Source: a virus
Lineage: Duplodnaviria > Heunggongvirae > Uroviricota > Caudoviricetes
Strand: one strand, 5' to 3'
DNA length: 39,611 bases
IMG/VR virus record: IMGVR_UViG_2563366977_000005
Coordinates: 1 to 39,611 of that record
Shown: positions 13,128 to 13,877 of the stretch, in pieces
Layout: each line of letters opens with the position of its first letter
Numbering within the stretch: the first letter of the stretch is position 1
The notes under the pieces: model-generated
What the model saw: only the letters and a program-made list of their open reading frames with translations
What the model was told of the DNA's origin: nothing
The model's database searches: none
Translations under genes and position numbers: made by a program

Positions 13128-13627
13128 TATTTGCTCCCGTTATCGCAAGGTTCCTTTCGGTGGAAGTAATTACAACCGTTCCACTTCGCCAACTGGTTTC
13201 CACTGCCAACAGGCATACGGTTTGGATAACCGGACTTACATTTTGCGGCTTTTGCTCTGTCCATTGCAGACAGTTTGACGAGTCGCTCTTTCCCGTATCT
13301 GGCAGTGGTTATAAGTTTTGCAGACGCTTCCAGCGCATAATCCGGAGCAATGCGGCAGGCAAGGTTGAAAATGACGGCATTGATAGCGTTATTTGATAAA
13401 CCGTGTTCATCGCCAGGATCTGGAGCGACATCTGCATCAGCGAAAATGTAGCCAACGTTGATACCTGGTGACGCATCACCGCCAAGCCATTCCGCCATCA
13501 TCATTTCAAGGTCGTTGACACCATCTTCCATGGACTGAGGTTCGACATCGGTTAACGTGGCATTTGATGCCACACCGAGCTTACGTAATGCCGCAAGAAC
13601 TAAATCACCCTTCGTTGTCAGGTTCAT
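13127..13627 (-). CDS. Head-tail adaptor protein, P22 gp4-like (166 aa)
   Basis: From the internal Met ([21 protein letters not shown]...) the protein aligns with recalled P22 gp4; the upstream in-frame QS-repeat extension is judged not part of the gene. Confidence 0.8.
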
Positions 13628-13877
13628 CTGCTGCCGCCTTAGGTTTTCGACCAGGCTTTTTACGCTGTTTTTCTTCTGGCTCTGGCTCTGGCTCTGGCTC
13701 TGGCTCTGGCTCTGGCTCTGGCTCTGGCTCTGCAACATCCTTCAAAAGGTCATCAGGATGTGCAAACCAACCAGCATCCAGATATTCCTGAAGCTCTTCG
13801 GCTTTCACAATTTCAAAATCGTAGCCAACGCCTTTCCACTTCTTCATGTTGCCATGGCGAAATATCATGTGTGTCAT
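13605..13877 (-). CDS. Small late-operon protein (about 90 aa) with (Glu-Pro)8 linker and basic C-terminal tail
   Basis: ATG preceded by GGAG, downstream of the post-coat terminator; contains the hexamer tandem repeat in frame; overlaps gp4 start by 23 nt. Confidence 0.45.
13678..13731. repeat. Perfect tandem hexanucleotide repeat, about 9 copies of GGCTCT
   Basis: Directly visible; encodes EPEPEP... in the small ORF frame. Confidence 0.95.

Follow-up and report, generated by a model that had tools for sequence, protein, structure and literature searches.

The window, by which we mean the whole 39,611-nucleotide (nt) stretch of DNA analysed here (IMG/VR record IMGVR_UViG_2563366977_000005, positions 1 to 39,611), is a complete genome of a P22-like (Lederbergvirus-type) Escherichia coli phage, and we found that it carries a perfect hexanucleotide microsatellite, (GAGCCA)9, inside a small gene of the late operon that lies between the coat gene and gp4 and is hereafter referred to as X. 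The array is very probably a coding variable number tandem repeat (VNTR) in a gene of the P22 ORF69 family, prone to slippage and encoding a (Glu-Pro)n spacer, hereafter (EP)n, whose length can change without harm to the protein. Two observations carry this reading: whole 6-nt units are added to and lost from the tract far more rapidly than point changes build up in its flanks, and Glu-Pro coding is kept when a synonymous unit takes over the whole array. Since the unit consists of two codons, the frame is never shifted.

The array is the strongest tandem repeat of the 39.6-kb window (Tandem Repeats Finder: 13675-13732, period 6, 9.7 copies, 100% matches, 0 indels, score 116), with the runner-up scoring 61, and a perfect 54-nt array of period 6 cannot plausibly have arisen by chance in 40 kb. 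On the minus strand, that of the late operon, it falls within an open reading frame (ORF) that runs from an ATG at 13877 to a TGA stop at 13605-13607. A preliminary description of this DNA had reported about nine perfect copies of GGCTCT at 13678-13731, which is the same array read in another register (Table 1), and had placed it in a late-operon ORF of about 90 amino acids (aa) between coat and gp4; a 90-codon gene, translated as far as sequence comparison can tell, does occupy that slot, and its position is conserved. Glu-Pro coding, as proposed there, was likewise confirmed, but the tract length given, (EP)8, was not, as translation yields (EP)9. The product reads [49 protein letters not shown]-(EP)9[23 protein letters not shown], with KDVA directly before (EP)9.

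The prediction that copy number would vary among isolates was borne out across related loci, which differ by whole units only. Among 91 loci (the 80 in IMG/VR most similar to the query, together with cultured phages and complete genomes), the array holds 2 to 33 units, all length differences are multiples of 6 nt, and the frame is kept in 91/91. The cultured phages compared are 94-97% identical over 701 nt, and their pure GAGCCA units number 9 in the window, 8 in both APC_JM3.2 and IME10, 5 in both Dewey and HZ41, and 2 in Bas106; Dewey has a GAGCAA unit in addition, and two of the five units of Louie are GAGTCA. The locus is present in 217 of 5,426 complete Escherichia coli genomes, a share of only ~4% that reflects its being prophage-borne, and there the match spans 671-845 nt for the 701-nt query. 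Three complete E. coli genomes read directly contained 33, 29, and 24 perfect units. The unit count also differs within 8 of the 15 groups of loci that have identical 1,047-nt flanks (for example 9/9/10/13, 11/13/14, 29/33, and 4/11). A tract that outpaces point substitution in this way is as expected for replication slippage, and slipped-strand mispairing at replication would change the number of units. The array therefore has what defines a coding microsatellite or VNTR: its short units are pure and arranged head to tail, and it is polymorphic among close relatives, changing in whole-unit steps and faster than its flanks.

We give almost no credence to the possibility that errors of sequencing or assembly in a low-complexity tract account for the differences in copy number. 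Tandem repeats can collapse in short-read assembly, and the 29-unit allele is mishandled by PGAP; however, all differences are exact multiples of 6 nt with 0 frameshifts, arrays of up to ~15 units (90 nt) fit within single short reads, and the same range was obtained from independent sources, namely cultured phages, complete genomes, and IMG/VR. Interrupted or variant arrays, moreover, recur between loci (L092 and L093; L020, L023, and L026). The 29-unit allele (L008, NZ_CP026199.1, 4317120-4317365) is flagged by PGAP as an incomplete pseudogene, an annotation artefact of its long low-complexity tract; the ORF is intact and encodes 130 aa.

The composition of the arrays bears on what is being conserved. 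Where an array is interrupted, the variant unit differs from the standard one by a single base (GAGACA, GAGCAA, GATCCA, GAGTCA, and GAGCTA). No interruptions occur in the three longest arrays (24-33 units), and few or none in most others of at least 10 units, while some (L036, L092, and L093) are heavily interrupted. In L020, L023, and L026 the whole array is built of 10-12 copies of the synonymous unit GAACCA, and in Yersinia proxima (L109) of eight copies of GAGCCT, and all of these still encode EP. A single synonymous unit throughout an array points to homogenisation (concerted evolution) with EP coding kept. A scan of one representative genome per species recovered EP arrays of 2-8 units in E. 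coli/Shigella, Kluyvera, Citrobacter, Buttiauxella, Rahnella, Yersinia proxima, and uncultured Enterobacteriaceae; in this survey the N-terminal domains of X are only 64-84% identical and the flanks have diverged. More distant relatives have just 2-3 EP units. Judged from these comparisons, the EP array is either old or recurrent.

Database records differ as to which gene owns the repeat. Those of APC_JM3.2 and Bas106, as well as NCBI PGAP annotations, contain X and a 166-residue gp4, and the APC_JM3.2 record marks a repeat_region at the array. The records of IME10 (JF974339/NC_019501), Dewey (PQ850600), and Louie (PQ850616), in contrast, omit X and begin gp4 at an upstream ATG (13738 in the window), so that gp4 would grow to 203 residues and carry (Ser-Gln)9 at its N-terminal end. 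In the Dewey and Louie records, an ORF of 45 codons is also annotated across the coat stop, and its reality is doubtful. We regard it as extremely improbable that the repeat belongs to such an extended gp4. The frame from ATG 13738 is indeed open into gp4 in the window and in 86 of the 90 close relatives examined, three phage annotations adopt it, and the variant unit GAGTCA is synonymous in it. However, when the extended ORF of 203 codons is aligned with the solved P22 gp4 chains (166 aa), their residue 1 falls on its codon 38, the ATG at 13627, and the extension is broken in relatives, in agreement with the preliminary description, which had put the repeat outside gp4. L048, L049, and L055 (three of the four close relatives in which the frame is not open) have lost the upstream ATG, in L048 and L049 through a GAT to GAC change that is silent in the X frame. 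GAGCTA units, which read Glu-Leu in X, are TAG stops in the gp4 frame of L092 and L093, and in the more distant L095, L097, and L098 the gp4 frame is closed one or two codons 5' of the gp4 ATG. In GAACCA arrays, (SQ)n would turn into (NQ)n, whereas EP stays unchanged. Finally, ATG 13738 directly abuts AAGG, so the spacing to this ribosome-binding site would be unusable. The N-terminal extension is thus interrupted or without a start codon in relatives and is absent from the solved gp4 of P22 (family P22_Tail-4, PF11650); on these comparisons, the extended gp4 with (SQ)n is effectively refuted and several database annotations are wrong. We also considered a programmed +1 frameshift in the repeat that would fuse X to gp4, the gp4 frame being +1 relative to that of X, and rejected it as a conserved mechanism because of the same frame closures in L095, L097, and L098 and the same TAG stops in L092 and L093.

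X itself is annotated as a hypothetical protein by PGAP and in two phage records, and the comparative evidence shows it, as far as sequence can, to be a translated gene on which purifying selection acts. Read in the X frame, the polymorphisms among 28 distinct haplotypes of the N-terminal 147 nt (49 codons) comprise 17 synonymous changes, 11 non-synonymous changes, and 1 stop, against an expected synonymous fraction of 0.19; read in the other two frames, the same polymorphisms give synonymous to non-synonymous ratios of 3:25 and 5:19. The X slot is kept in relatives down to 37% identity (seven more distant relatives, 37-77%), and the gene order coat, terminator-like hairpin, X, gp4 was seen in every relative examined. 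Ten residues of the N-terminal domain are invariant across relatives (G9, W14, G16, Y19, D20, G36, W37, H40, P41, and D42), and the GGAG of X is unchanged in 7 aligned phages and is also found in distant relatives.

That X is no functional protein gene, but a mere leader or spacer that separates gp4 from the coat terminator, with the repeat as a neutral DNA microsatellite, is very improbable in view of these results. The synonymous excess is confined to the X frame, the ten residues are invariant down to 37% identity, the N-terminal domain has a confident AlphaFold2 fold, EP coding survives replacement of the unit, and about 100 intact loci stand against one nonsense allele. On the other side, the C-terminus of X is set by the overlap with gp4, one relative does carry a nonsense mutation, and no essential gene is known to map between genes 5 and 4 of P22. 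We also found neither a function nor a phenotype for P22 ORF69, nor any paper on the repeat or the endonuclease repeat motif described below, in the searchable literature, which does not extend to the key P22 genome papers.

By profile similarity and position, X is the orthologue of P22 ORF69, in which the linker has expanded into a microsatellite. Both proteins match phrog_1175 (X, E 6e-34; P22 ORF69, E 4.5e-31), which PHROG labels as of 'unknown function'. Direct comparison with hhalign paired X with P22 ORF69 at 98% (E 2.7e-13, 67 columns) and with the CUS-3 ORF (ECRS218_0017), also of phrog_1175, at 96.5% (E 7e-10). A tblastn search of cultured phages with X returned only 8 close relatives and missed P22 ORF69; the P22 and CUS-3 ORFs were reached through their gp4 context and then by profile comparison. 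P22 ORF69 (AB426868, 6135-6344) and ECRS218_0017 occupy the same slot as X, after the terminator hairpin and overlapping the gp4 start, and a position between the coat gene and gp4, in overlap with the gp4 start or adjoining it, was seen in the window, P22, CUS-3, and the seven more distant relatives. X shares with both the same N-terminal domain with its GW..HP motif and, with the P22 ORF69 family, an acidic linker followed by a basic K/R-G-R-K-P-K motif; X thus has both the sequence similarity and the slot between the coat gene with its hairpin and gp4 that mark this family. The linker is what sets them apart: it is short and non-repetitive in P22 ORF69 (PVEADDV, in a protein of 69 aa) and missing from the CUS-3 ORF, whereas in the subfamily of the window it is a pure, hypervariable (EP)n. 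Gene 6 of Sf6 and hkbT of HK620 (PHROG 3251) also sit in an X-like slot, from the coat terminator to the gp4 homologue, and encode 61 aa with a KRGRK patch near the C-terminus, but they belong to another PHROG and reach an hhalign probability of 0.9%, which makes them positional analogues only.

Other small genes occur in the same interval. The metagenomic locus L098 has an Acb2/Tad1 hairpin-domain gene between coat and X (3748-3993; PF24729, E 9e-16), a member of the anti-CBASS/anti-Thoeris sponge family, and a Kluyvera prophage (L107) has an unrelated 78-codon ORF in the slot between coat and X (1768-2004). Accessory genes seem, from these arrangements, to insert in the gap between coat and gp4, and the Acb2/Tad1-type gene of L098 indicates that the site can host counter-defence cargo.

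The protein has three parts. With an alignment of nine sequences, AlphaFold2 predicted the N-terminal part at a pLDDT (predicted local distance difference test) of 83-92 over residues 1-40, comprising a long beta-hairpin (residues 2-25; strands 2-14 and 17-25), a helix (26-34), and then a conserved GW-x2-HPD; from about residue 45 onwards, the model is a low-confidence coil. Searches with this domain found nothing similar in the PDB and only uncharacterised small phage proteins in BFVD. A phmmer search of 1.84 billion representative proteins with residues 1-48 gave just 22 matches, some of them small relatives with the same three-part layout and the rest proteins of 196-2,425 residues in which a core 'I/V-x3-E-L-Q-x-Y-L-D-x-G-W' recurs 4-6 times (E 5e-7 to 8.5e-8). 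Four of these repeat proteins were scanned against Pfam and showed GIY-YIG with NUMOD3 or a weak, sub-threshold HNH, apart from P0133, which had neither. The N-domain family aligned to 32 such repeats in hhalign (96%, E 2.8e-9, 21 columns). The repeat, of ~34 residues with the pattern '..W/Y-I-N-k-g...K.I..eELQ.YLd.GW..G', is present in 4-6 copies in P0130, P0133-P0136, P0138-P0140, and P0142, and has neither a Pfam model nor a solved structure; it presumably serves as a DNA-binding module. These HNH/GIY-YIG homing-endonuclease-like repeats align with the strand-helix-GW core of the X domain, but X has a single copy, in which the hairpin is longer, and lacks a nuclease domain.

The remaining two parts are an acidic spacer and a short basic motif. 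Scans of X with Pfam and NCBIfam gave compositional matches only (procyclin, TonB, and DnaX linker). The proline-rich region of TonB is an extended rod, and acidic (EP)n spacers are known from TonB and procyclins. In the TonB spacer, (EP)n is followed by (KP)n, and in X a Glu-Pro run is likewise followed by a Lys/Pro-rich basic stretch. X is nevertheless no relative of TonB: this cytoplasmic phage protein lacks the membrane anchor and the TonB C-terminal domain (no TonB_C match), and its matches are compositional, to TonB_N (E 0.24) and, over residues 47-83, to NCBIfam TonB (NF008084, E 0.004); the 17 bits of the latter lie far below cut-offs of 265-315 (315 for NF008084). The basic motif reads KKPGRKPK in the window, KKPG(R/P)KPK in relatives, KPRKGRKPK in P22 ORF69, and KRRGRPPK in the relative P0131. 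It shares with the AT-hook (PF02178) a short basic Gly-Arg-Pro/Lys-Pro core flanked by Lys/Arg, and P0131, with KRRGRPPK at the homologous position, has a sub-threshold AT_hook match (E 0.047, 14.0 bits against a cut-off of 17.4). X itself gave no match to PF02178 at E<=1 and is, by the standards of Pfam, no genuine AT-hook protein; its core is P-G-R-K-P and it reads PGRKPK, not RGRP, and its motif is partly constrained by the gp4 ribosome-binding site.

We propose that (EP)n forms an extended, acidic spacer of the polyproline-II type, resembling that of TonB, which would join a folded N-terminal domain of 45 residues to the short basic KKPGRKPK motif. The protein would tolerate almost any spacer length, and most of the length variation would be nearly neutral. 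Tolerance of 2-33 dipeptides, with none in P22 and CUS-3, suggests that length change is mostly near neutral. X might be a late accessory factor, dispensable to the phage and able to contact nucleic acid; this tentative suggestion is prompted by the AT-hook-like basic motif and the resemblance of the N-domain core to a non-catalytic HNH/GIY-YIG homing-endonuclease-like repeat.

The 3' end of X also bears on gp4. The gp4 ATG lies 20 nt 5' of the X stop, so that the last seven codons of X overlap the conserved first codons of gp4, and the gp4 ribosome-binding site AAGG (13637-13640) falls within X codons K80-A81 (AAG GCG). A gp4 start inside the 3' end of X makes translational coupling plausible, and from this arrangement X and gp4 are probably coupled. 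Such coupling is one ground for a different view of the repeat, namely that spacer length is adaptive, a contingency-like tuning knob that either sets the reach between N-domain and tail or alters gp4 dosage through translation of the Pro-rich tract. The very wide allele range (2-33 units) would fit this view, and so would a tract that is pure and long across diverged genera and built from different codon units, which suggests maintenance and not decay. However, a two-codon unit makes on/off switching of expression impossible, P22, CUS-3, and other family members have no repeat at all, and loci with identical flanks but very different lengths show, in this sample, the pattern of near-neutral drift. 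In work on EF-P, moreover, alternating Glu-Pro is not among the known strong ribosome-stalling motifs. We therefore consider adaptive length unlikely.

A further reading combines these elements: the ORF69-family protein would be a late DNA-handling factor, with a homing-endonuclease-type module and an AT-hook-like tail, and its poly-(Glu-Pro) rod, hypermutable in the E. coli/Kluyvera/Yersinia subfamily, would be functional and selected for length. We judge this quite improbable. If it were true, the rod might mimic nucleic acid as a polyanion, pair with the basic tail in autoinhibition, or serve as a ruler of tunable length, and selection, exerted for instance by host defence or by a need to adjust gp4 dosage, would favour the rapid length variation. 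Nor does the locus have the features of a phase-variable contingency locus, as the unit is 6 nt long, 91/91 loci are in frame, and the tract lies inside an ORF and not in a promoter; an in-frame unit provides no phase-variation switch. The length-tolerant VNTR of the ORF69 family, which remains our preferred explanation, most closely resembles the coding VNTRs known from bacterial and phage linkers, such as the 6-bp loci used for multiple-locus VNTR analysis (MLVA) in enterobacteria, with which it shares short units, change by whole units, allelic diversity, and an intact frame. In contrast to MLVA-type loci, the X locus was not found described or used for typing in the searchable literature.

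Several points weigh against the preferred explanation. Because the IMG/VR loci were chosen for their similarity to the query, the distribution of copy numbers is that of a biased sample. Translation of X is argued from sequence comparison, and one allele (L062, IMG/VR UViG_2684622552_000004, ~3040) has a TGG to TAG change at the invariant W14; it is the sole disrupted allele among ~100 loci and is consistent with X being dispensable. Conservation of the X C-terminus belongs in part to gp4, because the gp4 ribosome-binding site and first codons overlap it, and the basic motif decays in CUS-3 as well as in L095, whose X gene is free of any overlap with gp4. Only 21 columns are covered by the endonuclease-repeat match, and the repeats aligned were picked from the query's own matches. 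The resemblance of the spacer to TonB is compositional only, a reasonable analogy.

The coordinates of the array, of X, and of the neighbouring elements are collected in Table 1. The terminator-like hairpin next to the coat gene is kept in all relatives, with compensating changes in the stem (GGGGC/GCCCC, with other loops) and, in L099, a wholly different stem, and it is annotated as the terminator 't coat' or 'tGP5' in the Sf6 and HK620 records. Its probable role is to reduce expression of the genes that follow the strongly expressed coat gene, or else to make the coat mRNA more stable. An Rfam scan of the window gave 0 matches.

Table 1. Positions of the repeat, of gene X and its parts, and of adjoining features in the 39,611-nt window
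Feature	Position	Strand	Basis and remarks
(GAGCCA)x9 perfect hexanucleotide microsatellite	13677..13730	-	Units counted directly in the sequence; encodes (EP)9, residues 50-67 of X
Small late gene X, 90 codons + TGA	13605..13877	-	ORF list, phrog_1175, frame-specific synonymous excess
Predicted N-terminal folded domain of X, residues 1-48	13734..13877	-	AlphaFold2; beta-hairpin, helix, GW..HPD motif
Basic motif K70-K80 of X ([11 protein letters not shown]), AT-hook-like	13638..13670	-	Conserved in relatives
Shine-Dalgarno GGAG of X	13884..13887	-	Read from the sequence; 6 nt 5' of the ATG
Terminator-like hairpin GGGAGC-UUCG-GCUCCC + U-run	13889..13916	-	Terminator scan; 8 nt past the coat stop
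Spurious N-terminal gp4 extension MLQ(SQ)9[16 protein letters not shown]	13628..13738	-	Annotated in the IME10, Dewey, and Louie records; refuted
gp4 head-tail adaptor, 166 aa	13127..13627	-	PF11650, E 5e-58
P22-type major coat gene, upstream neighbour of X	13922..15217	-	PF11651, E 8e-166

Elsewhere in the window, the P22-type genes include those for portal, terminase, scaffold, coat, gp4, and gp10. An integrase (1-1158) lies at the left end, together with gtrA/gtrB and a gene for a gtrC-like membrane protein (1312-3900), which form an O-antigen glucosylation cassette; the tailspike gene (3935-5980, minus strand) encodes a P22 head-binding domain. Tandem Repeats Finder also reported weaker arrays at 10420-10461 (period 21, 2 copies), 35017-35065 (period 21, 2.3 copies), and, in an AT-rich stretch, 29370-29409 (period 14, 2.6 copies).

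A coding VNTR in a linker is a familiar phenomenon and no new kind of biology. Four points seem not to have been recorded before in the searchable literature: how far the array varies, the tie between X and P22 ORF69, the likeness of the N-domain to endonuclease repeats, and the correction of the gp4 annotation. The corrected error, in which gp4 has a false (SQ)n N-terminus and a real small gene is absent (IME10, Dewey, and Louie), has spread through GenBank and RefSeq. With 2-33 units, the array is among the most length-variable coding repeats in enterobacterial prophages; the locus could serve as a fine-scale marker for P22-like prophages, and it can trip gene callers. Our findings also tie X to a conserved gene, ORF69, of the well-studied phage P22, for which they supply natural length variants and a three-part architecture, together with testable hints that the protein may bind nucleic acid and that its translation may be coupled to that of gp4.

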